Shown in pieces: positions 681 through 48,685 of a stretch of DNA of 64,000 bases (positions within the stretch are counted from its first letter, which is position 1; every line of letters begins with the position of its first letter). The notes under the pieces are model-generated. The model saw only the letters and a list, made by a program, of their open reading frames with translations, ran no database searches and was not told the DNA's origin. The translations under genes and the position numbers were made by a program. The stretch is from a virus. The stretch lies in the IMG/VR virus record IMGVR_UViG_3300033144_006696, positions 59,867-123,866 of that record. One strand, written 5' to 3'.

Positions 681-689
681 GTGTAAAAT

Positions 690-914
690 ATGGCTTATGT
701 ATTCAATGTTCTTACAGGAAATCTTGATTATTATGAACCAGCTTCTTCATCTCCCCCTGTATCAGTGGATGCTTATTTTCCTAAGTATGTTTTAACAAAC
801 GAAGAATTAACAATTCAAGCATTTGGGCAATATGTTCTACACGGAAAAGTTGCATTAACTTTAAATGGAACTGCTGAAATAATCTTAGAAGAAGGTGCGG
901 AGGTAATACTTTGA
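690..914 (+). CDS. hypothetical tail-region protein
   Basis: SD-like AGGTG upstream; packed operon. Confidence 0.55.
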   Translation: MAYVFNVLTGNLDYYEPASSSPPVSVDAYFPKYVLTNEELTIQAFGQYVLHGKVALTLNGTAEIILEEGAEVIL

Positions 915-1099
915 GTGAACCAGCAAAAATCATACTAACAATGGGCACATCTATCCCTGCACAAAATCCAGCAATTGGAAAAATTGCACTATACCCAAAA
1001 ACAGATGGATGGTATCAACTTGATTCTGATGGTGTTGAAACAAAAATAGAAGGTGGAGTAATACAAGAAGAAGCAATTATGTGGGCAATGGTTTTATAG
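911..1099 (+). CDS. hypothetical tail-region protein
   Basis: TTGA overlap with the previous stop; GKIALYPKTDGWYQLDSDGVE motif typical of tail fibre modules. Confidence 0.5.
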   Translation: MSEPAKIILTMGTSIPAQNPAIGKIALYPKTDGWYQLDSDGVETKIEGGVIQEEAIMWAMVL

Positions 1100-1108
1100 G
1101 AGTATTTT

Positions 1109-3823
1109 ATGATTGTTTTAGAAATAGGGGATAAAATTCAAGGAGTAGCTTCAGTTAATTCTGTAGTTGATTTTTCACTTTCTGGATTGGATAACAATAC
1201 TTTAAGTCTTCTTAGTACAGGCCAAATAAGTTCATCTCTTGCAGATTTATATACAGCAGATAGTGTTGATGTAGTTAAAACACTGACATTTGTCAATACT
1301 CACTCTGATGTTGTATATTTGAATTTATATGTTCTTCCATTTGAAGGTGTTGCAAGAAGAATTTTAGCGAAAGATTTGAAACTTTCAATAGGTACTGCTA
1401 TTCATACTGATGGTGAAATTTTCTCACTTGTTCATCCTGTTGAAGAATCTTTTTTGGCAAGTGTTGATGATACACCATATGATGCAACAACATGGAATGG
1501 AAATACAGATGCTGCTACTAAAAATGCAATTCGTGATAAAATAGAAACTCTTGCAAGTGGTCATGATGCAGTAACTATAGATACAGCAAATGGTTTATCT
1601 CTCTCTACTCAAGTACTTTCCCTTGCTGCTGCAACTAATTCTATTCCTGGTGCAGCAACAGCAGCACAAATCACTGCCATTGAAGCAAATACAGGAAAAA
1701 CTACTAACGCAACACATACTGGTGATGTGACTGGTGATGTTATTTTAACTCTTGATAAAACTGCAATAACAGGACAAACTACAGTAACTGCTGATAATGC
1801 TGATTATGTGGTTATATCAGATACGAGTGACACAGGGGCATTGAAAAAAGCACTTGTTTCTGATTTTGGTGGTATTGCTATATCAAGCTTTACTCAAGAT
1901 TCAGGGATACTTGTAGGGACTGGTGCAGGCACATTTCAGGAAGAAACAGGTGCAACTCTCAGGACAAGTTTGAATGTTGATGTCTCTGGAACAGATAATA
2001 GCACTGATGTCACCTTGCATGCTTCCGCCACAACTGGAGGATTAAGCTTATCAACTCAAGAAATAAGCAGTCGAGCCGCATCAAACGCATTGACAGGCTA
2101 TGCCACAGCAGCACAAATAACAGCCCTTGAACTGGCCACAAACATCGAAAATTATGCAAATTCTCCAATGGTTATCACAGGCGGTGAAATTACCACTTTG
2201 GGAGCAGCTGCCGGGACTTTTGATGTATCTGCTATCACAGCGTTGGTAAGATCTACAGATAGCTATACAGGTGCCTTGGTTTATATAACTTTAGGGGATC
2301 AAAGTGATGTTACTATTTCATTAGCGAATACCACATATTTTGTGTTTTTGGATTATAACGGTGGCGCCCCTCAAATAAATTTAGATACAACAAATGTTTA
2401 TGAAGCAGGTACAGATAGAACACAGCTTCCTATTGGAAAAGTGATGAAGGACGGTTCCGATGTTGTTCATTATATTTCTGGTGGATATAATTTTCAAGAT
2501 GGTGTCAGAAAATTACAACGCAGAATAAGAGATTTACACAATCTTACTCTTGCTTCTGGATCTACAATAGAATATCAGGCCACGAATCAATTTACGATGA
2601 CTCAGGCGGTAATATATGCAGGTGTAAATAAATTCACTATTGCCAATTACGACAGTAATGCAACGGATTTTATTCATTTTTATTCAGCAGGAGGCGGTAA
2701 TTTTACTTATACCGCTGCGACTGACACAATAGATTTTGCTAATTACGATGCGGGTGCAGGATCTCTTGATAGCGTTAGTAATGCTAAGTTTGGGTGTTTT
2801 TGGGTGTATGTACATATTGATGGTCATGCATATGTGCGGTATGGGGAATGTAATGGATCATTAGCGGAAGCAGAAGCCTCGTTAGAGCCAAGTAAACCTA
2901 TACACTTGGCTGACTTTGGTATTTTGGTTGGTAAATTTATAATGCCTGCTGCCGGGGGTAGTTTTTCACTTGTTCAAATGGTGACTGATACACAATTTAC
3001 GGCAGTATCTGCGGCTGATCATGCTAATTTAACCAGTCTTGCTTACGCGAATTCTGGGCATACGGGTTTTGCAACTGATGATAACACCACTGATGTGACA
3101 CTGAGCGCTTCCGCCACGACTGGGGGAATGAGTCTATCCGGACAGGAAATCAGTAATAGATCTGCCACAAACGCGTTGACAGGATATGCTACTGCTGCAC
3201 ATATTACGGCTATCGAAACTAATACGGACAAAGTAAGTCTTGAAGATAATTCCGTTACTCTTGCAAAAATGGCAGGCGGAACTGATGGTAATTTAATCAC
3301 TTACGATGCGGCTGGTGATCCTGCCTATGTTGCTACAGGGACGGTAGGTCAAGTTCTAACAAGTGCTGGAGCTGGCGCAGCTCCTACTATGCAGGATGCT
3401 GGCGGTATTTCTGATGTGGTTAATGATACCACCCCTACGCTTGGCGGACCGCTGGATGCCGATGATAAAATAATCTCAAAGGCAGTAATGAAAGATACCG
3501 GAGAGACAATCAATGTTCTCGGAGACCTCGGGGGTGGCACAGATGATATTGATCTTGAAGATGGGAATGTGGTAACTGCTACTGTTTCCACAGCAGAGCA
3601 GACATTCACTTTTTCAAATCCTCCGGCAAGCGGAACGAATGGGAGCTTTACTTTGATCCTCACGAATGGTGGCTCGCAGACTGTTAATTGGCCTGCAAGC
3701 GTTGATTGGGTCGATGCCACTGCACCCACTTTAACCGCTGCTGGTGTTGATGTTTTGGTGTTTACGACCATAGATGCTGGTACGATTTATTTAGGCTTCA
3801 CCGCCGGATTGGATGTGTCATAA
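1109..3823 (+). CDS. tail fibre protein
   Basis: 904 aa, T/A/G/S-rich, three internal repeats; C-terminal TFTFSNPPASG...NWPASVDW...DVLVFTT domain typical of phage tail fibres; RBS GGAG. Confidence 0.8.
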   Translation: MIVLEIGDKIQGVASVNSVVDFSLSGLDNNTLSLLSTGQISSSLADLYTADSVDVVKTLTFVNTHSDVVYLNLYVLPFEGVARRILAKDLKLSIGTAIHTDGEIFSLVHPVEESFLASVDDTPYDATTWNGNTDAATKNAIRDKIETLASGHDAVTIDTANGLSLSTQVLSLAAATNSIPGAATAAQITAIEANTGKTTNATHTGDVTGDVILTLDKTAITGQTTVTADNADYVVISDTSDTGALKKALVSDFGGIAISSFTQDSGILVGTGAGTFQEETGATLRTSLNVDVSGTDNSTDVTLHASATTGGLSLSTQEISSRAASNALTGYATAAQITALELATNIENYANSPMVITGGEITTLGAAAGTFDVSAITALVRSTDSYTGALVYITLGDQSDVTISLANTTYFVFLDYNGGAPQINLDTTNVYEAGTDRTQLPIGKVMKDGSDVVHYISGGYNFQDGVRKLQRRIRDLHNLTLASGSTIEYQATNQFTMTQAVIYAGVNKFTIANYDSNATDFIHFYSAGGGNFTYTAATDTIDFANYDAGAGSLDSVSNAKFGCFWVYVHIDGHAYVRYGECNGSLAEAEASLEPSKPIHLADFGILVGKFIMPAAGGSFSLVQMVTDTQFTAVSAADHANLTSLAYANSGHTGFATDDNTTDVTLSASATTGGMSLSGQEISNRSATNALTGYATAAHITAIETNTDKVSLEDNSVTLAKMAGGTDGNLITYDAAGDPAYVATGTVGQVLTSAGAGAAPTMQDAGGISDVVNDTTPTLGGPLDADDKIISKAVMKDTGETINVLGDLGGGTDDIDLEDGNVVTATVSTAEQTFTFSNPPASGTNGSFTLILTNGGSQTVNWPASVDWVDATAPTLTAAGVDVLVFTTIDAGTIYLGFTAGLDVS

Positions 3824-5973
3824 TGAGTTTACTTGCGAACAAATTAATAATGTGTGCAGGGAGTGGAGATGAAGAAATCCTCCCTGAAGCCATAGACTTT
3901 GACGGTACGAATGATTATTTGAGTCGGTCAAGTGATTTGGTGGGTAATACAGATGGTAAGACTTTTACTTTTAGTTGTTGGGTTTATAATTATCATACAA
4001 CGTCTCTTTCATTGTACTCAAGCAAAACGTCGGCAGGTACTATAAACATATATGTTAATAATTCAGGTACCTTGTATATACAGATGGTTAATGCTACCGG
4101 TACTGAGATTAGACTTAACTGGGAAGCACCGAGCAAAACAATACCTTTTGGCACATGGGTTAATATTATCATTAGTATGAATATGGCAAGTACTTCTTAT
4201 AGACATATTTATGTTAGTGATAAAGTAGTAACTGGTGCATATACCTTTTATGCAAATGAAGATATTTTATTTGCTCATACGGATCATTATATCAATAGTA
4301 ATTTGGGTAGCAGTGAGCGAGGCAAGGGCCGACTCTCTCATGCCTTCCTTGATTACACCTACAGAGATTTATCCACAGAATCAAACCGCCGTCTATTTTG
4401 CACTGAAGACCTAAAACCAGCAGATCCAGCCACATTAATTGCATTAAACCCGATTATGTATATGCAATTAACAGACCCAGACACAGCTCACGTAAACAGC
4501 GGCACAGGCGGGGATTTCGTGCTTAATGGGACTGTGGCTCTTAGTGAGCGGGGACCTAATCAGGATAATTGTGTGGCTTCTGAGTTTGATGGGAGTGCGG
4601 ATTATTTAAGTGTTGGAAGTGTAATCGGCTTATCTGATGGAAAAGAGCTAACATTATCATTTAATCTTAATCCACAAAGAACTGGAAATTCTGATACTTA
4701 TCAATTATATGTTGCGGATGGTGCTAACTACAAACTTCTTTTACGCTATGGCAGCGATGATATTATGCAGTTTGTTGTTAGAAATTCATCAAATACCGTG
4801 GTGTTGAATGTTACATATGCCTCTATCGGACCAGAGTTTAAGACTTATAGCATCGACATCTCAGTAGATTTGACTAACGCAGCAAATAGACATTTCATTA
4901 TTAACGGTGTTGATCTTACATCATCAGTCACATGGTCAATTTATACAAATAACAACATGGATTTAACTGGTGATACCTACGAAATAGGTCGAGGGTTTGC
5001 AATATTGCAGCCACAAACCATAGGAGAGTTTTGGTTCAATACCTCCTACACAGACCTATCAACATCAAACCCATTCTGGGACTCAGACCTAAACAAACCT
5101 GTACCAGTAAGACAAGTAATAGAAAACACAGGCGTAACGCCGTTAATTGCTTTGCCTATTAGAGCTGATGACGCAGGGAATAATCTTGGTACTGGTGGGG
5201 ATTTCACCTTGTATGGTGGTGGGCTGGTGGGTGCAAGAGGTGTATCTGAATTTTGGGCGAGATCTGCTAATTTTGATGGGAGCACTAATTATTTATCACG
5301 TACAACTCCGTTAGTTGGATCAGTGGATAGCAAACAAACTACTTTAGTATTTAGTTTTAATACAGATAGCGTTAGTGGAAATCATACTCTTTTTCATGCT
5401 CGTGATAGCACATCAAACAAGACGGCTGTAGTGTGTGATAACAATAGTACGTCATTGAGATTCTATCTCCAAGATAGTTCAGGGCAAATTCTGGCAATAT
5501 CGGGTGTTATGAGCACTGCTTTATCTATAAATACTTGGTATACTGTGCTTATTTCTGATGATAGAAGCACATCCACTACTCGTATTTATGTAAATGAAAT
5601 ACAACAGACCCCAACTCCATCAGTTGATATTGATAGTAATGTGACTTTAGCTAATGTGTGTATCGGAATAGGCGTGAATGAATATGATGGAGATTATGCA
5701 AATGATGGCTATTTTGATGGGGATATCGGATTTTTATATTTCTCAATAGATTACATAGACTTTTCTCAGGAATCAAACCGCCTATTATTTGTTGATGCTC
5801 TTGGATACCCAACAGACCTACAAAAGAAAATAGATGCCGGAGAAGTGCCTGAACCATTAATCTATATGCCATTTGATGACACAAGCGATTTTGGTGTCAA
5901 TTCAGGAACGGGTGGTGACTTCACTGAAAACGGAACAATAACAGCAGGCGCAGACATAGACCCTAACGCATAA
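3823..5973 (+). CDS. LamG/concanavalin-A-like lectin repeat protein (receptor binding)
   Basis: Three FDGxxxYLS-initiated beta-sandwich units separated by repeated NxGTGGDFxxNG linkers. Confidence 0.75.
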   Translation: MSLLANKLIMCAGSGDEEILPEAIDFDGTNDYLSRSSDLVGNTDGKTFTFSCWVYNYHTTSLSLYSSKTSAGTINIYVNNSGTLYIQMVNATGTEIRLNWEAPSKTIPFGTWVNIIISMNMASTSYRHIYVSDKVVTGAYTFYANEDILFAHTDHYINSNLGSSERGKGRLSHAFLDYTYRDLSTESNRRLFCTEDLKPADPATLIALNPIMYMQLTDPDTAHVNSGTGGDFVLNGTVALSERGPNQDNCVASEFDGSADYLSVGSVIGLSDGKELTLSFNLNPQRTGNSDTYQLYVADGANYKLLLRYGSDDIMQFVVRNSSNTVVLNVTYASIGPEFKTYSIDISVDLTNAANRHFIINGVDLTSSVTWSIYTNNNMDLTGDTYEIGRGFAILQPQTIGEFWFNTSYTDLSTSNPFWDSDLNKPVPVRQVIENTGVTPLIALPIRADDAGNNLGTGGDFTLYGGGLVGARGVSEFWARSANFDGSTNYLSRTTPLVGSVDSKQTTLVFSFNTDSVSGNHTLFHARDSTSNKTAVVCDNNSTSLRFYLQDSSGQILAISGVMSTALSINTWYTVLISDDRSTSTTRIYVNEIQQTPTPSVDIDSNVTLANVCIGIGVNEYDGDYANDGYFDGDIGFLYFSIDYIDFSQESNRLLFVDALGYPTDLQKKIDAGEVPEPLIYMPFDDTSDFGVNSGTGGDFTENGTITAGADIDPNA

Positions 5974-41897: not shown

Positions 41898-42067
41898 ACC
41901 ATATAACCTTCAAGTTCTTCTTTCTCTACAAACCAAGGCTCAATTTCCACTACTAAATCATCATAGTCATTAATTACTGATTTTGGTATCCAAACATCTC
42001 TCTCATCAAAATAAAATAAAACCGCATCATCTGTTTCATGACTAACACCATCATGGCAAATTTCCAT
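41894..42067 (-). CDS. small acidic protein (57 aa)
   Basis: Read manually: HETDDAVLF...VWIPKS...EPWFVEKE. Confidence 0.65.
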   Translation of the reverse strand: MEICHDGVSHETDDAVLFYFDERDVWIPKSVINDYDDLVVEIEPWFVEKEELEGYMV

Positions 42068-44169
42068 TATTCACCCCCAAACACAGATTTATAACAAGCT
42101 AAAGTTAATCCTGCTTTCCCAGAATCAAAGAAATTATTCTCAAAATTTTCCATCATGAAAAATATATTGTCATCACCATTATTAAGCATGATAGAATTCA
42201 TGTACATTAATATTGGCCTTCTTGCTGATTCACCATCACCTTTAAAATCTTTTAGGATTTTTTTAATCTTTGCCCATTTTGTTTTTGGAGGCATATTGTA
42301 ATGTGAAAGAGTTCTGCAAATTTCAATAACCTCAGTTTCACTGGTTCCTGCTGATTTAAGGGTATTAATGGCACGTTCAGAATCATCCATATCAATTACT
42401 TGATCAAGAAGTTTCAATGCTTGCCCTGCTGAACCATCTGCAAGCTCAATGATGTGATCTCTTACATCCATTGAAATACATTCGCGTTTTTCTTTCTTTA
42501 AAATCATTCTGAAAAGTTTTTGAAGATCAGAACTTTTCAGAAATTCAAGTTCATACGTGTGACATCTACGTTTTAAAGTGGATTTTAACGCTTCTGGATT
42601 CGTTGTACACAAAATCCAATGCACATATGCAGGAGGTTCTTCAAGTGCCTTAAGTAAACTTTCCTGTGCAATTTTTGTTATAGAGTGACAATTGTGAACC
42701 ATATTTCCATTTGCAATATAAGAATGATTTTCTTTTACTTGCAAATCATAGAACTCTACAAAGCCTTGATCTCTTTCTTTATGTCCAATAATACTTGAGA
42801 AAGATTCATCATTACTTCCTCGTTTGTAAATCTCAACACTTTCCACCCTTTCCATCGAAGAAGAGACTCTTTCTTTTTGTCCAGTTTTCGTCTCTGAATA
42901 GAGTTGTGTCCCTTTCCGTCTATTTCTATTGCAATCTTTAATTTTGGATTTCCCAAATCCACTTTGTAAGAAGTTGGAATTCTTTTTTTGCGGCACCAAA
43001 CTTCCCGTTGTTTCATAGGCAAATGATCTGCTGTTTTCACTGCAACTTCTGATTGCCAAGCTAATGCAGCCATTAATAATTTCTGTGGTTCTGTCAACTG
43101 ACCATTCCCACCACGCTTTCCTTTCCAAACATGAAGAGTTCCATTTACTCTTTTTGTTTCTATTGCCTTCTCTTTCACACCAGAAAGATTCATCGGATTG
43201 TTTTCCTTCATACGTTCTGATGATTTTTGTGCAAATTCCTTGCCTTCTTTTGTTTGATAAAAATCTAAAGACTTTTTGCTTATTTTTTCCCTTGTCTCTT
43301 TTGATCGTCCAGTTTTCTTTACACAACTTTTTGCATATTTCCCTGAACAACTTTTTGAGCAAAATTTTCGTGTCTTTCGATCTGTGGTAAATATCTTTTT
43401 GCACCATAAACAACTTTTTGAATCTAAAACACTTTTTTCTTTTAATGATTCTCTGTAAAATGCTGAACAACTGTTTGAACAAAACTTTCTGCTTTTGTTC
43501 TTCGGAAAAAATTCCTTTTCGCAAAATTGACATATCTTTTTGTAAGTCATTTTGTACCTCGCATAGTGAACTTGTGTTAATCATAGGTTCACTATACCTT
43601 ACAAGAAGTATGTTTGTCAAGTCTTTTGCTTTAATCCAATTACCATCAAGATAATACTCCTGATCTTCAGAACAAAATGTACTTGACCCGTCAGATTTAT
43701 TGATTTTAATAACCCTACTTAAAGGAACTTTGTTAATAAATACTTTCTCAACAATATCAGTTCCATTTAAGTTAAAAACTGCGTCATTAACTTTAATTAA
43801 ATCAATTCTCTTTTGTCCTTCTGAAGTTGGTATTGAAGTACAAGCACTAAAGCACTCATCTAATAGAATAACTTTTTTAGTTCCTGATAAAGGTGCAAAC
43901 TTCATTGATTGAATTAATCCCCTTACCCCATCAATACCTCTATCATCAGCAGCATTTAATTCTTTAAAATCAGCATCAGAACATTTTAAAGCTCTTTTGA
44001 TAACTCTTCCCATACTGGTTTTCCCGGTCCCAGATCCCCCAGTGAATAAAAATGCAGCAGGAGGATTATCTCTTTTTAAAACAGCAGAGAGACTTTTTTT
44101 AACATCATCATTTCCAATAAAAGTTTTAAATGATTTTGGTCTGTAAAATGTTGCTAATCCTGCCATCAC
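42067..44169 (-). CDS. dnaX: clamp loader, DNA polymerase III gamma/tau-like, containing an intein
   Basis: YRPKSF, GGSGTGKT, LLDE|CH Walker B split by the intein, LLKALEEPP, LKRRC. Confidence 0.9.
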   Translation of the reverse strand: MMAGLATFYRPKSFKTFIGNDDVKKSLSAVLKRDNPPAAFLFTGGSGTGKTSMGRVIKRALKCSDADFKELNAADDRGIDGVRGLIQSMKFAPLSGTKKVILLDECFSACTSIPTSEGQKRIDLIKVNDAVFNLNGTDIVEKVFINKVPLSRVIKINKSDGSSTFCSEDQEYYLDGNWIKAKDLTNILLVRYSEPMINTSSLCEVQNDLQKDMSILRKGIFSEEQKQKVLFKQLFSILQRIIKRKKCFRFKKLFMVQKDIYHRSKDTKILLKKLFREICKKLCKENWTIKRDKGKNKQKVFRFLSNKRRQGICTKIIRTYEGKQSDESFWCEREGNRNKKSKWNSSCLERKAWWEWSVDRTTEIINGCISLAIRSCSENSRSFAYETTGSLVPQKKNSNFLQSGFGKSKIKDCNRNRRKGTQLYSETKTGQKERVSSSMERVESVEIYKRGSNDESFSSIIGHKERDQGFVEFYDLQVKENHSYIANGNMVHNCHSITKIAQESLLKALEEPPAYVHWILCTTNPEALKSTLKRRCHTYELEFLKSSDLQKLFRMILKKEKRECISMDVRDHIIELADGSAGQALKLLDQVIDMDDSERAINTLKSAGTSETEVIEICRTLSHYNMPPKTKWAKIKKILKDFKGDGESARRPILMYMNSIMLNNGDDNIFFMMENFENNFFDSGKAGLTLACYKSVFGGE
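42691..43854 (-). mobile_element. intein (388 aa) at the DE/CH site with an out-of-frame nested endonuclease
   Basis: C1 CFSACTSI; ends FYDLQVKENHSYIANGNMVHN followed by Cys+1; central region reads as off-frame sequence. Confidence 0.9.
42756..43550 (-). CDS. DUF559/Vsr-like endonuclease with zinc-ribbon repeats, nested in the +1 frame of the intein
   Basis: CxxC...FCSxSC twice; YKVDLG, IAIEIDGKGH, DKKKESLLRWKGWKVLRFTNEEV; own SD GAGGT 5 nt before ATG. Confidence 0.88.
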   Translation of the reverse strand: MTYKKICQFCEKEFFPKNKSRKFCSNSCSAFYRESLKEKSVLDSKSCLWCKKIFTTDRKTRKFCSKSCSGKYAKSCVKKTGRSKETREKISKKSLDFYQTKEGKEFAQKSSERMKENNPMNLSGVKEKAIETKRVNGTLHVWKGKRGGNGQLTEPQKLLMAALAWQSEVAVKTADHLPMKQREVWCRKKRIPTSYKVDLGNPKLKIAIEIDGKGHNSIQRRKLDKKKESLLRWKGWKVLRFTNEEVMMNLSQVLLDIKKEIKAL

Positions 44170-44417
44170 TTCTCCTTTTTAGGAATATACCCTGCACATG
44201 TTAATGCTTCATGCCTGGGTGCTTTGCACACAATGCCAAAATTTCTACAGTATTCATTTTCTTGATGAATACATCCATTGCCAAAATTACATTGTTCTTC
44301 CCACTTAAAGAGAATTTCACCAATAAATCTGGATCTTGATACTCCTTTTTTTTTTGCACAATCCCTAAGTTTTTTTTCTAATGGTTCTGGGATCGTGATG
44401 CTGAAGGTCATTCCCAT
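44166..44417 (-). CDS. RHH/CopG-like regulator with Cys-rich tail
   Basis: TFSITIPEPLEKKLRDCAKKKGVSRSRFI. Confidence 0.7.
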   Translation of the reverse strand: MGMTFSITIPEPLEKKLRDCAKKKGVSRSRFIGEILFKWEEQCNFGNGCIHQENEYCRNFGIVCKAPRHEALTCAGYIPKKEK

Positions 44418-44516
44418 TTTTTCACCTATTTATATGATTGACTAATCATTAAAATTCACAGCTAAAATTATTATAATGATTTCTTAATGAAAAGTCAATC
44501 ATTAATTAATAAGAAT

Positions 44517-44920: not shown

Positions 44921-47900
44921 TTAATACATTTTATTTATTTGATCAATATCTATCTCCTCCATAAAGGCAAAATTACCTCCTTCCTCTTTTAATTTTGATA
45001 ATTCAAATTCCATTTCAATAGGAACAATTAACCATTTGAACTTATTTTTAAGATTTTTAACAATATCATTTACACCATTTAAAATAAATTTGATTTCTTC
45101 TTTATGTAGGTTAAAAATTATTGAATCGTGCACTTGGCCAGTTATTTTGGTTTTACATTTATTTTTTCTGAGGAATTTTTCAACTTCGATCAAAGTAAAT
45201 AATAATAAATGAAAACTGGTAGATTGTATAGGAAAATTGGTGCATTGCTTCTTATTCATGTATCCAGTAAATCTGAATCCAAAATATGTTTCAATAAAAC
45301 CATACCTTTGATAAGACTCAACTATGTTCTCTTTCCATTCTGTATAAACTGGAAATCTTTCTTTCCACATTTTACTTTCAATATTTTTACAATGTTCAAG
45401 GAATGAACCAGGAGTTGGTTCATATTTTATCATTTCCCCAAGTTCATATATTCCTTGACCTTCAAGCCAATGTTTTACTGTTTCACCATTTGGAAGTGTT
45501 AATCCAGCTTCTACTACATTTTCCCATAAATTCGGAGCACATGACCCAAACCAATCACCATAAAATTGAGCAAATGTCCAATTATTCTTGGCATAAAATC
45601 GAATATTTTTGATCATTTTTATTTGAGCTTTGCTATACCCAGGATAATGTTTATTCATTAGTTTAAGTGGTAATTTAAACAATTCCATTGCCAGATCACG
45701 ATGCATGTCCCCCTGAGTTACGTCAAAAATAAACGTAGGGTCTTTATGATATGCTGCCGAAGTTATTATTTCAGCACCAGAAAAATCACACTCACACAAA
45801 ACACAATTTTTTGAAGGAACTATGCCTTTTCGTACTAATGCTTTAATTTCGGGATTTCTGGCAGGAAGATTTTGGTGATTTGGCTTACTGGATGAATTAT
45901 GCACACAAATTTCATTTACAAAAAAGTTATGACAATCCTCAACTTCAATATCATAAACATCAGTTTTTTTACCTATCCACTCAATCTTAGTTATTATATG
46001 ATTTCCAGGTTTAAACTCTCCGAATTGATTTCTCCATTTCCTCTTTGAATCAATTCCATAATAATCATATAATTCAAGTAATCTATAATGGTTATGACCA
46101 AGAATATCTTTAACTTTTGCCCTTCCAAGTTTTGATAAGTCTTCAAGTCTTTGTTTTGATATAAATTTATCATGTTTATCAAAACATAAGTTTATTTTTT
46201 TCCAATTAATTTTATTAATTACAAGATATTTTTTGAATGTACTAAAATCTATTGAAAATTTATCTGCTGTTTTTTTTGGTTTGCCAGCACATTCCATTAA
46301 CATACAAACACACTGATCTTTTGATAAATTAAATGATCGTGGATTATCTTTGCCTCTTTTTATTGTGTGATCATATCTTCCTTCTTTCCATCCTTTCTTA
46401 ACTGCTTTAATATTATTTATTCTTGACTTCTTTGAACATATAGTATCTTTACTGTGTAACTTTGCATGACTTGATTTTGTATGTTTTTCAAGATTTAATG
46501 GATTATGATTAAAATGATTTTTATCTTTATGGTGAACAATGTCACCACATGTCAATTCACCTATAAAATTTTCATAAATTAATCTATGCTCTAATACGCC
46601 CTTTCCACCTTGTAAATGTCCTGTAAAATTTAATTTATCTCCACTTCTTTTACATGCTAAAGCCCTACAATTTCCATCCTTTGCTTTACTTTTTTTATAG
46701 TGTTGTTTTTTTAAGAGGTTTTGAGCTTCTACATACTTACCATTTATTAATCTAACTTTATGCTCAGGTGTGCAATCAAAATGTCCATGACCACCTTTTC
46801 TATAATAATAAACACGAATTATTTCCCTGTGTCCTGTTTTTCCTTGCCATAATACTTTTTTAATTGCAGGATTTAATTCATTATCAAAACAATATACATA
46901 ATCACCAACTTTAATGTCTTTTATTGGGATTCCTTCTGGATGTAATTCAAAATCTTTCGCCACAAGAACTTTTTCATATTCAGCAATACAGGAACGGTAA
47001 CTTACTGGAATATGAAGATCCCAAAACGGATGAATAATACCTTTATAAACTTCTCTTGCAAATTGTGCAAGATAGGTTCCTTTTGCTTTCTCAAGCTTTT
47101 TCATTTGAATAAGTTTATCAACAAATGGCAAATTTAAAGATTCAAGAGTCAATGCATCTGTTTTGTAATTATTATTTGCTGTATATACTGGAGTTTTACC
47201 AAGCACTTCATAAAAAAGTTTGCCAAGATCAGTATTTGATGTAATGTTTATTTCTTTTCCAATTTGTTCTTTAAATTTTTTTGCTTCTCTACCTTCAGTT
47301 AATTCCTTCTTTGTTATGTCAATTCTTTCTTTTAATTCAACATTTGTCTTTTTGTAATACTCAGTATTAACAGTGATACCATTGAGTTGTATAGTTCCCA
47401 TTGTACGGATTCCACGCATAAAGAACTTAAAAGCATTATGTAATTTATCCATTTTTGAAAAATAAGCTTTTTGATCATTATAAAGCATGTATGTGAAAAT
47501 ACAATCAAGACCATTATAAACCAAAAGATCTTTTAAAGGTACTTTCTCTACTGTATTAAACTCTGTGCCTTTTTTTGATTTTAGAAAAGGTGATATTGAG
47601 TCATCGTAAGGGCGAACACCATATCGTACAAATGCTTGAAACTTCAAACCTATTGCAGCAGCTCTATTATCAGTGCATTTTTGACCAATCATCGTACAAT
47701 GAATTACATTTCTTATACGAGTTCCAATTTGAATGGCTGACCACATGTCCTCAAATTTTGCATTGTGCGCTATCTTTTCAATATCTTTATGTGCAAGAAT
47801 TTCTTTCCATAATGCTTTGATTTCACTTAATTCACTTTTTGTCCAGAAAGAATTAAAATCAAATGGAAATGCATATGCTTTTTTTGCTGATATTGCAAGA

Positions 47901-48685
47901 GCTATCGTAACTATTTTGTGTCCATTACGATATGGTTTCAAACCAGTTGTCTCATAATCAAAAGCAATTTTTTGTTTTCTTTTTATGACTCGTTTTAAGA
48001 GTGATTTAACGTCGATAAAGTTTGTAAGAGTGACAACATACTTCTCAAAGTTTGTTTGCTTCTTATACGTCTTATTTAAACATGTATTAATGAGTTTTAG
48101 ATCTCGTTTAAACGTAGAATGTAGATTTTTGTCTTTATCTTTTTTAACAAGTTCCCATGGATGAAATAATGGAAGTACATAACACTTAAATTTTTCATCT
48201 GGAATTTGAAATGCACGCCAACGCATTATTTTACGATTGGAAAAGTTTTCACCAAATACAGATGTTATTGCAATACTCCCAAGTAGTACAATAAGTTTTG
48301 GTTTAAGTTTAAGAATTGTCCTTTGTATCATTGGATAACAACAAGAAATTTCTTTATGTGAAGGGATTCTATCATGTGGAGTTCTACAATTTACAGCTCC
48401 AATTTTCCAACAATCCTTATGCAGTGAAATTTTTATATGTCTTAGTTCTTTTTTTAGGAAATCACCATTTTCACCAACAAGATGAATCCCAAACTCATCT
48501 TCTTCTTGTCTTGGAGCTTCCCCAATTATCAGAATCCTTTTTACACCTTCACCAGTAACATCTAATTTAGGATGCAAACAATTTTTATATAATCCACATT
48601 TTCCACAATCAGGAGTTAATTGGTTTATATCAATTTTTTTCTTTGTTTTTTTAACTAATTCACTTTTGGTAAAAAATCCAACCAC
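44921..48685 (-). CDS. polA: family A DNA polymerase with N-terminal UDG-like and 3'-5' exonuclease domains, containing an intein
   Basis: CGKCGL, IIGEAP (UDG family 4-like); FDYETTG; RS|SSSKPNHQNLP split; CDFSGAEI; NFPIQST; QVHDSI. Confidence 0.92.
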   Translation of the reverse strand: MVGFFTKSELVKKTKKKIDINQLTPDCGKCGLYKNCLHPKLDVTGEGVKRILIIGEAPRQEEDEFGIHLVGENGDFLKKELRHIKISLHKDCWKIGAVNCRTPHDRIPSHKEISCCYPMIQRTILKLKPKLIVLLGSIAITSVFGENFSNRKIMRWRAFQIPDEKFKCYVLPLFHPWELVKKDKDKNLHSTFKRDLKLINTCLNKTYKKQTNFEKYVVTLTNFIDVKSLLKRVIKRKQKIAFDYETTGLKPYRNGHKIVTIALAISAKKAYAFPFDFNSFWTKSELSEIKALWKEILAHKDIEKIAHNAKFEDMWSAIQIGTRIRNVIHCTMIGQKCTDNRAAAIGLKFQAFVRYGVRPYDDSISPFLKSKKGTEFNTVEKVPLKDLLVYNGLDCIFTYMLYNDQKAYFSKMDKLHNAFKFFMRGIRTMGTIQLNGITVNTEYYKKTNVELKERIDITKKELTEGREAKKFKEQIGKEINITSNTDLGKLFYEVLGKTPVYTANNNYKTDALTLESLNLPFVDKLIQMKKLEKAKGTYLAQFAREVYKGIIHPFWDLHIPVSYRSCIAEYEKVLVAKDFELHPEGIPIKDIKVGDYVYCFDNELNPAIKKVLWQGKTGHREIIRVYYYRKGGHGHFDCTPEHKVRLINGKYVEAQNLLKKQHYKKSKAKDGNCRALACKRSGDKLNFTGHLQGGKGVLEHRLIYENFIGELTCGDIVHHKDKNHFNHNPLNLEKHTKSSHAKLHSKDTICSKKSRINNIKAVKKGWKEGRYDHTIKRGKDNPRSFNLSKDQCVCMLMECAGKPKKTADKFSIDFSTFKKYLVINKINWKKINLCFDKHDKFISKQRLEDLSKLGRAKVKDILGHNHYRLLELYDYYGIDSKRKWRNQFGEFKPGNHIITKIEWIGKKTDVYDIEVEDCHNFFVNEICVHNSSSKPNHQNLPARNPEIKALVRKGIVPSKNCVLCECDFSGAEIITSAAYHKDPTFIFDVTQGDMHRDLAMELFKLPLKLMNKHYPGYSKAQIKMIKNIRFYAKNNWTFAQFYGDWFGSCAPNLWENVVEAGLTLPNGETVKHWLEGQGIYELGEMIKYEPTPGSFLEHCKNIESKMWKERFPVYTEWKENIVESYQRYGFIETYFGFRFTGYMNKKQCTNFPIQSTSFHLLLFTLIEVEKFLRKNKCKTKITGQVHDSIIFNLHKEEIKFILNGVNDIVKNLKNKFKWLIVPIEMEFELSKLKEEGGNFAFMEEIDIDQINKMY
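45896..46990 (-). mobile_element. intein (365 aa) with HNH endonuclease
   Basis: C1 CIAEYEKV; CTPEH block B; EHRLIY...VHHKDKNHFNHNPLNL; VYDIEVEDCHNFFVNEICVHN followed by Ser+1. Confidence 0.92.

Follow-up and report, generated by a model that had tools for sequence, protein, structure and literature searches.

The textbook intein is a single polypeptide whose nuclease domain is read in the same frame as its splicing domains. The question raised by the locus described here is where the homing endonuclease resides when the intein frame itself holds a basic, apparently unstructured stretch between its two splicing domains. The locus is a DnaX-like AAA+ clamp-loader gene in IMG/VR virus record IMGVR_UViG_3300033144_006696, a CheckV-complete record of 123,866 nt, and the window that we analysed is the whole 64,000-nt stretch at positions 59867-123866 of that record. 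Our answer, which we hold to be probable by a wide measure, is that the clamp loader carries a mobile, cis-splicing intein in its Walker B motif (DE/C), and that the homing-endonuclease gene (HEG) of this intein is a separate gene, overprinted on it in the +1 frame. Four observations carry this answer: the architecture of the locus, the pattern of selection on its two frames, the predicted folds of their products and the recurrence of the whole arrangement in other viruses.

The clamp-loader intein and its nested nuclease gene

The clamp-loader gene, the intein and the nested open reading frame (ORF) all lie on the minus strand (Table 1). The clamp-loader precursor matched PHROG 5846, 'clamp loader of DNA polymerase' (E 3.7e-58), and in Pfam DNA_pol3_delta2 (E 1.8e-16) and AAA. 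A first-pass annotation of this DNA had placed a 388-codon intein at the DE/CH junction of Walker B, and both its coordinates and the junction were borne out. The insertion point is VILLDE/CH; the N-terminal nucleophile is the Cys1 of CFSA, a Cys in 82/82 family members, and the C-terminus is MVHN followed by Cys, the endings in the family being HN (63), SN (18) and GN (1). Clamp-loader homologues that lack the intein (alleles L016, L017 and L020-L024), 64-73% identical to the window gene, read LLDEAHCLT at this place.

Table 1. Positions of the features discussed (window coordinates, except for the last row)
Feature	Position	Strand	Basis
DnaX-like AAA+ clamp-loader gene, precursor including intein	42067..44169	-	700-aa ORF
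N-extein, last residues are Walker B VILLDE	43855..44169	-	translation; intein-free relatives read LLDEAHCLT
Intein, 388 codons, CFSA...MVHN, then +1 Cys at 42688-42690	42691..43854	-	translation and intein profile
C-extein, first residues CHSITKIAQESLLKALEEPP	42067..42690	-	translation; intein-free alleles 64-73% identical
N-terminal splicing domain, intein residues 1-~90, holds block B CSEDQ	43585..43854	-	AlphaFold2 pLDDT 86-95 (residues 1-88); aligned to gp41-1 intein
Block-B codon CAG (Gln); His in 80/82 family members	43660..43662	-	family alignment
Intein-frame filler, residues ~91-331, basic, unconstrained, stop-free	42862..43584	-	AlphaFold2 pLDDT 25-50 (residues 91-331); omega 1.58; stop avoidance
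C-terminal splicing domain, intein residues 332-388, ...FVEFYDLQVKENHSYIANGNMVHN	42691..42861	-	AlphaFold2 pLDDT 73-94 (residues 332-388); conserved in alignment
Nested +1-frame gene, 264 aa and stop: two FCS-type zinc fingers, helical linker, EDxHD/Vsr-like (DUF559) nuclease	42756..43550	-	Pfam, PDB, fold, omega
Two Cys4 FCS-type zinc-finger modules, nested residues 7-28 and 47-68	43347..43532	-	conserved Cys columns
Nuclease core, nested residues ~141-264, with D198, E209, D211, H215, D224	42759..43130	-	conserved columns, 51 sequences
True dual-coding stretch: nuclease C-terminal helices and first strands of intein C-domain	42756..42861	-	both models confident
Shine-Dalgarno GAGGT, 5-nt spacer, then nested ATG at 43548-43550	43556..43560	-	sequence; enriched family-wide
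Promoter-like site TTGACA-18-TATAGT in intein N-domain, 40 nt upstream of nested ATG	43591..43620	-	11/12 consensus match
Second case in the same record, outside the window (L014), SF2 helicase; nested gene 207 aa, +1 frame	G000:C1:9551-10102; host ORF 689..3082; nested 1477..2100	-	

Inside this intein the first-pass annotation had described a 264-aa ORF (42756-43550), with zinc-ribbon repeats and a DUF559/Vsr nuclease core. We reproduced its coordinates and its +1 offset from the host frame, and found both parts of the protein. The ORF matched Pfam DUF559 (PF04480) with E 5e-13 (49 bits, cutoff 20.6). A profile built from 51 homologues matched the DUF559 structure 3hrl (E 1.5e-13) and 3r3p, the catalytic domain of the homing endonuclease I-Bth0305I (E 1.4e-4). 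The latter was also the best Foldseek match (3r3p_B, probability 1.00, E 2.6e-3) of the AlphaFold2 fold, whose mean pLDDT is 93.4. Across the 51 homologues there is no variation at D198, D211 or H215, and at least 90% have E209 and D224; the I-Bth0305I residue that aligns with H215 is H213, replaced by Ala in the crystal construct. The repeats are two Cys4 modules (C7/C10/C24/C28 and C47/C50/C64/C68) with an FCSxxC motif. The nested-protein profile matched the FCS zinc finger 2l8e (PDB) weakly, PF06467 was found in relatives, and nested residues 2-79 matched PHROG 1271, annotated 'HNH endonuclease'. By profile, fold and catalytic residues the nested protein is thus a member of the EDxHD/Vsr-like homing endonuclease family, with predicted nuclease activity.

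Both frames are open throughout the overlap. The host and nested frames contain no stop there, compared with 24 stops in the third frame of the same strand and 5-19 in the frames of the opposite strand. With a random-codon stop probability of 8.5%, calculated from base composition, 265 open codons are expected with P ~6e-11, close to the ~1e-9 estimated in the first-pass annotation. When the nested protein and its own codon usage were held fixed and synonymous codons were shuffled 10,000 times, the shuffles contained on average 20.9 host-frame stops and 0/10,000 stayed open. A host-frame stop arises only where a nested codon ending in T precedes a codon starting with AA, AG or GA, and so the overlap imposes no amino-acid constraint on the nuclease. 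The nested gene uses T-ending codons in 0/61 of the eligible risky contexts, against 60% elsewhere (P ~3e-25), and codon choice avoided stops likewise in 13/13 loci first examined. The open host frame is kept purely by synonymous codon choice in the nuclease gene.

Selection on the two frames was compared by omega (Nei-Gojobori) between the window and L003, the closest relative, in which the nested protein is 74% identical. For the overlap, omega came to 0.22 when read in the nested frame and to 1.58 when read in the host frame; beyond the overlap the host gene gave 0.19. More distant pairs repeated the pattern. Of the initial proposal that selection acts on both frames, the half concerning the nested frame held, since this frame is under purifying selection; the host frame, in turn, is constrained solely against stops.

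The arrangement is not confined to this virus. Two IMG/VR scans, in which at least 356 stretches matched, gave 87 independent loci that were examined; in 85/87 the host frame is open and a homologue of the nuclease is encoded in its +1 frame, and both splicing domains were found by hidden Markov model in ~80 loci. The hosts are clamp loaders in 40/76 unique sequences, the rest being SF2 ResIII/DEAD helicases and SNF2-type helicases, and the junctions are mostly DE/C(H or Q), others being DExH/C or DExHx/C. The +1 arrangement persists down to ~30% protein identity. A tblastn search of GenBank phages found homologues inside the 'helicase' genes of Vibrio phages CP-T1 and 1.088.O, again in the +1 frame, with the intein at DE/CHH; blastn of the clamp-loader gene against GenBank phages gave no match. 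Judged from these sequences, the elements form a family of non-canonical inteins, with the HEG in another frame, the intein frame open, and purifying selection on the one against relaxed selection on the other.

The public records of these phages, JQ177061 and MG592463 included, annotate neither the intein nor the nested nuclease: the whole precursor is labelled 'putative helicase' or 'P-loop NTPase' in CP-T1 gp10 (JQ177061), NVP1088O_73 (MG592463) and others.

According to the reading that we favour, ribosomes on the clamp-loader gene would read through the nuclease gene in the host frame, making an unstructured basic stretch of ~240 residues between the splicing domains. Protein splicing would then excise the whole 388-residue intein, joining LLDE to CHS. 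The nuclease would be made independently from its own Shine-Dalgarno (SD) sequence and ATG, possibly via an internal promoter, and would presumably cut intein-less Walker B alleles, leading to homing.

Splicing, separate translation and the alternative explanations

Two sets of data bear on splicing and on separate translation. The AlphaFold2 model of the intein frame is confident at both ends and of low confidence between them (Table 1). The best solved relative of the splicing domain, found with a profile of nine relatives, is the gp41-1 intein (6qaz, E 1.1e-13), and the splicing-domain profile also matches PI-MtuI and the DnaB, DnaX and DnaE inteins. As to translation, the SD of the nested ORF was found as first described (GAGGT-5 nt-ATG). 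We surveyed 72 unique nested proteins with an N-terminal CxxC. An ATG lies at most 15 codons upstream of the first Cys in 59/72, at a median of 5 codons, and 37/59 of these have an SD-like motif 7-17 nt upstream, compared with 17.5% of the other ATG trinucleotides in the same genes. The conserved ATG and the SD enrichment support the earlier suggestion that the nuclease may be translated as a separate protein, and the comparative evidence as a whole favours the first-pass interpretation. The sigma-70-like site in the intein N-domain is shared by L003, and 7/12 loci have a TATAnT 19-40 nt upstream, which hints at an internal promoter for the nested gene.

The sole other 11/12 promoter match in 42000-44500 is at 44470-44498, ~50 nt upstream of a small ORF (44166-44417, -) located before the clamp-loader gene. 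We also considered whether the C-intein might be made on its own from a conserved internal start, and dropped the idea: the candidate Met, before VESVEIY, occurs in the window and L003 only.

Several points weigh against a functional intein with an independently expressed nuclease. The window copy scores 26.2 bits with Pfam Intein_splicing, below the cutoff of 35.8, and its relatives score 37-47 bits. Its block B, as the first-pass annotation had remarked, lacks the His of the TxxH motif. We confirmed the Gln codon, and among the 82 family members Gln occupies this column in the window copy only; L003 reads CSQDH, so that the TxxH pattern is missing from the window copy (S-E-D-Q) and not from the family. 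This copy may splice slowly or not at all, or its block B may be compensated; the CAG codon may also be a base-call error. As regards the nested gene, about a third of the relatives have no detectable SD, and the promoter-like site matches a consensus in a region rich in AT, with 13 such sites found against 8.8 expected. Finally, a 250-codon gene must at some time have acquired a stop-free -1 frame; one may speculate that this frame stems from GC-rich genomes, in which alternative frames are often open, and then spread under purifying selection against stops.

The His of block B is missing from some active inteins, such as Tko CDC21-1. The Gln found here, unique in the family, would nevertheless fit a decaying element, in which splicing is inefficient or the nuclease inactive, and the clamp loader is impaired or the copy is being lost. 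Relatives that are intein-free or broken would fit it too, the latter including L046 with one stop, P0041 with a frameshift and the truncated L012. Against decay, both frames of the window locus are intact; the nuclease catalytic residues, the intein C1, the terminal HN and the +1 Cys are all kept, and the gene stays open in a CheckV-complete 124-kb genome. We therefore regard decay as unlikely, albeit the most serious competitor of the favoured reading.

Programmed ribosomal frameshifting would give a nuclease that is not free-standing: a +1 shift near the end of the N-terminal splicing domain (IntN) would yield an IntN-nuclease fusion, and a shift back would yield a bifunctional intein. A fusion of this kind is compatible with function, as seen in the helicase relative P0030, in which N-extein and IntN are fused in frame to the nuclease. 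However, the full bifunctional intein would require two shifts, and the conserved ATG (median distance to the first zinc-finger Cys, 5 codons), with its enrichment in SD motifs, speaks against this reading. Moreover, a stop closes the nested frame 10 codons upstream of the ATG in the window, and 0-37 codons upstream (median 10) across the family. Frameshifting is in our judgement very unlikely.

The intein-frame product of the overlap also deserves attention in its own right. The first-pass annotation had taken it for a spliced-out filler of ~265 aa. The term filler suits the central ~240 residues, which are modelled with low pLDDT, but not for the last ~35 nested codons, which overlap the folded C-terminal splicing domain. 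In this dual-coding stretch identity at nested codon position 3 rises to 0.57, compared with 0.34-0.42 elsewhere, and each clamp-loader locus checked has exactly 65 nt between the stop codon of the nested gene and the end of the intein. One could argue that the filler is itself functional, for instance as a basic nucleic-acid-binding or regulatory linker, and that its frame is kept open for this reason. Intein residues 102-367, the 266 residues of the overlap together with its C-domain part, have a strongly basic composition (K+R 24%, pI 10), and helices are predicted in residues 94-177 with low confidence. Yet host-frame omega was 1.0-1.6 in every pair tested, the pLDDT is 25-50, the apparent conservation of motifs in the host frame mirrors conserved motifs of the nuclease frame, and the need to reach the C-extein already accounts for an open frame. 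A functional filler was rejected on omega, and we give it even less credence than frameshifting.

An assembly or sequencing artefact, in which two compensating indel errors in the contig would have displaced an in-frame nuclease, might draw on the rare in-frame relatives P0121 and P0122 and on P0041, which looks frameshifted, but it is hardly conceivable and was rejected on recurrence: where the first-pass annotation would have taken in-frame homologues as a sign of such errors, we found the same +1 phase with an open host frame in 85/87 independent metagenomic loci, in both of the phage isolates from GenBank and in another gene of the same genome, which excludes assembly error. Nor would an error produce a 265-codon stop-free alternative frame; the nested frame, moreover, is closed by a stop shortly upstream of its ATG.

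Variants, mobility and a possible exchange of the nuclease module

The overprinted intein is sporadically distributed among clamp-loader homologues, as fits a mobile element. In addition to the intein-free alleles there is a variant in which the insertion has a different position: L019/L038 (IMGVR_UViG_3300005264_000759) carries a homologous intein and nested +1 gene two codons downstream, reading LLDEAH/CFDRR...VHN/CLTKPSQ, and this intein uses the native Cys of the intein-free DEAHCLT.

The second case in the same virus record, outside the window, is an intein of an SF2 helicase (L014), also at Walker B DE/CH (Table 1). Its two modules have different relationships. Its splicing domain groups with those of helicase inteins and is 32% identical to that of the window, while its nuclease core falls within the clade of clamp-loader nucleases (SH-aLRT 95) and is 65% identical to the window's. 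Over the family, nuclease cores cluster by host type, with 5 changes against 25.6 in shuffles; these results come from quick IQ-TREE trees. This pattern suggests that the nuclease module may have been exchanged between the co-resident inteins of this genome. Since every member already has a stop-free -1 frame, nuclease modules would be exchangeable between such inteins.

Other relatives depart from the common architecture. In L046 (2298-4442), a clamp-loader relative, the nested nuclease gene is intact but the filler contains exactly one host-frame stop, which gives ORFs 2298..3260 and 3261..4442, so a single stop codon turns the contiguous form into a fractured-gene form. At L099 (2803-4570) a free-standing nuclease relative of 210 aa lies directly upstream of an intein-less SF2/SNF2-like helicase gene, with a 17-nt overlap, and the DEIH box of this helicase is intact. 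In P0041 the host frame passes into the nuclease frame midway, apparently by a frameshift. The UvrD helicases P0121 and P0122 have, at DE/CQD, a Vsr-like domain that lacks zinc fingers and is in frame in the canonical manner. These in-frame relatives and the N-fused P0030 are rare evolutionary variants and give no argument for an error in the window.

Two further loci, L011 and L012 (IMGVR 3300003877_000001 and 3300003876_000014), concern an SNF2-type helicase with two inteins, an upstream one of LAGLIDADG type and then the Walker B intein with its +1 nested gene, which ends in SN and not HN; L012 is a shortened version without the C-terminal splicing domain.

Adjoining the clamp-loader gene in the window is a PolA-type DNA polymerase ORF of 1254 aa (44921-48685, -) that contains an in-frame insertion, CIAEYEK...ICVHN/S, with HNH-like His motifs. 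The insertion is apparently a canonical intein with an in-frame nuclease, in contrast to the clamp-loader intein.

Relation to known systems

The first-pass annotation had been cautious about novelty, and rightly so, since earlier publications already contain the principle that an intein nuclease can be encoded out of frame (Gorbalenya 1998; Gosselin 2025; Phillips 2026). As cited in preprints of the Gogarten laboratory, such nucleases have been known since Gorbalenya 1998, in the Synechocystis DnaX intein. Cyanobacterial dnaX inteins contain a +2-frame LAGLIDADG gene with its own SD, and their omega values are low for the nuclease frame but high for that of the intein (Phillips, DeSimone & Gogarten, bioRxiv 10.64898/2026.09.14.751524). 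They share with the window intein a DnaX-family host, a low-confidence or disordered intein frame between the splicing domains, an overlapping nuclease ORF with an SD, and the same omega pattern. In contrast to these LAGLIDADG, +2-frame, chromosomal elements, the window family has an EDxHD/Vsr-like nuclease with FCS zinc fingers in the +1 frame and is carried by phages; it occupies Walker B not only of clamp loaders but also of SF2 and SNF2 helicases.

Among actinophage inteins, antisense LAGLIDADG homing endonucleases (HENs), antisense Vsr-like HENs and a frame-3 EndoVII-like HEN have been described (Gosselin, Arsenault & Gogarten, bioRxiv 10.1101/2025.01.02.630785). There too a phage HEN occupies a frame other than that of the splicing domain, and the Vsr-like ones were matched to I-Bth0305I. 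However, those Vsr-like HENs are antisense and the only same-strand case is the EndoVII-like one, whereas the window family is same-strand, +1. The hosts also differ, being terminase, polymerase, capsid and thymidylate synthase in the actinobacteriophages and clamp loaders and helicases here. The same study states that Vsr-like HENs are otherwise known only with split inteins, and proposes that a free-standing HEG invades the intein and that exteins are switched via shared nucleotide-binding motifs (bioRxiv 10.1101/2025.01.02.630785).

The split inteins in question are the 'fractured genes', in which a free-standing Vsr-like/EDxHD HEG lies between the intein halves, gp41-1 included (Dassa et al. 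2009, PMC2677866). They share with the window intein the family of the nuclease and the setting in phage DNA-replication genes, and gp41-1 is the best solved relative of the window splicing domain. In fractured genes, 6-69 bp of C-intein coding sequence also belong to the 3' end of the nuclease gene, to be compared with the 65 nt between nested stop and intein end in the window. Unlike fractured genes, whose host is divided into two ORFs and which splice in trans, the window family has a continuous host frame in 85/87 loci and would splice in cis. The window host gene is not broken into two ORFs; only L046 has a stop.

I-Bth0305I, another of the nearest known systems, has NUMOD-type motifs, and its gene sits in a group I intron of recA (2011, PMC3239194). 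Like it, the nested protein is bipartite, a DNA-binding region at the N-terminus being followed by a Vsr-like catalytic domain, and its D198 and H215 have the same 17-residue spacing as D196 and H213 of I-Bth0305I, H213 being the general base (PMC3239194). Unlike it, the nested protein has FCS-type zinc fingers as DNA-binding modules and its gene is overprinted on an intein. A further parallel is the ShiLan-type out-of-frame HNH endonuclease hidden in a phage methylase (Arsenault et al. 2025, PMC11855218), which is also an endonuclease gene in an alternative frame of an insertion that is stop-free in the host frame. That insertion, however, is without splicing domains and its loop stays in the host protein, whereas the window insertion is flanked by intein domains. 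In our literature search, in which journal coverage was incomplete, contiguous Walker B inteins with an EDxHD gene in the +1 frame of the same strand did not appear in any report.

Taken jointly, these comparisons leave roughly even odds that we are dealing with a large, apparently undescribed clade of phage inteins that target the Walker B/motif II (DE/C, DExH/C) of clamp loaders and of SF2/SNF2 helicases. This clade, with its +1 EDxHD gene, would be old and stable, would have exchangeable nuclease modules, and would be the cis-splicing counterpart of gp41-1-type split inteins; it is possibly also their precursor, because one stop codon converts the one form into the other. The gp41-1 intein is among the fastest known split inteins.

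The family is a large natural collection of cases where two overlapping genes divide splicing and homing between them; with an overlap held by synonymous choice alone, it is also a clean model for the persistence of overprinted genes. Gene callers overlook the nested nuclease, as in the CP-T1 and Nahant Vibrio phage precursors labelled 'helicase', and phage records could be re-annotated. The family may also yield new site-specific nucleases and Walker-B-targeting inteins. A single, concrete mutation connects it with the split inteins that protein engineers use, and, with regard to the origin of intein nucleases, it backs the view that splicing came first and the nuclease invaded later.

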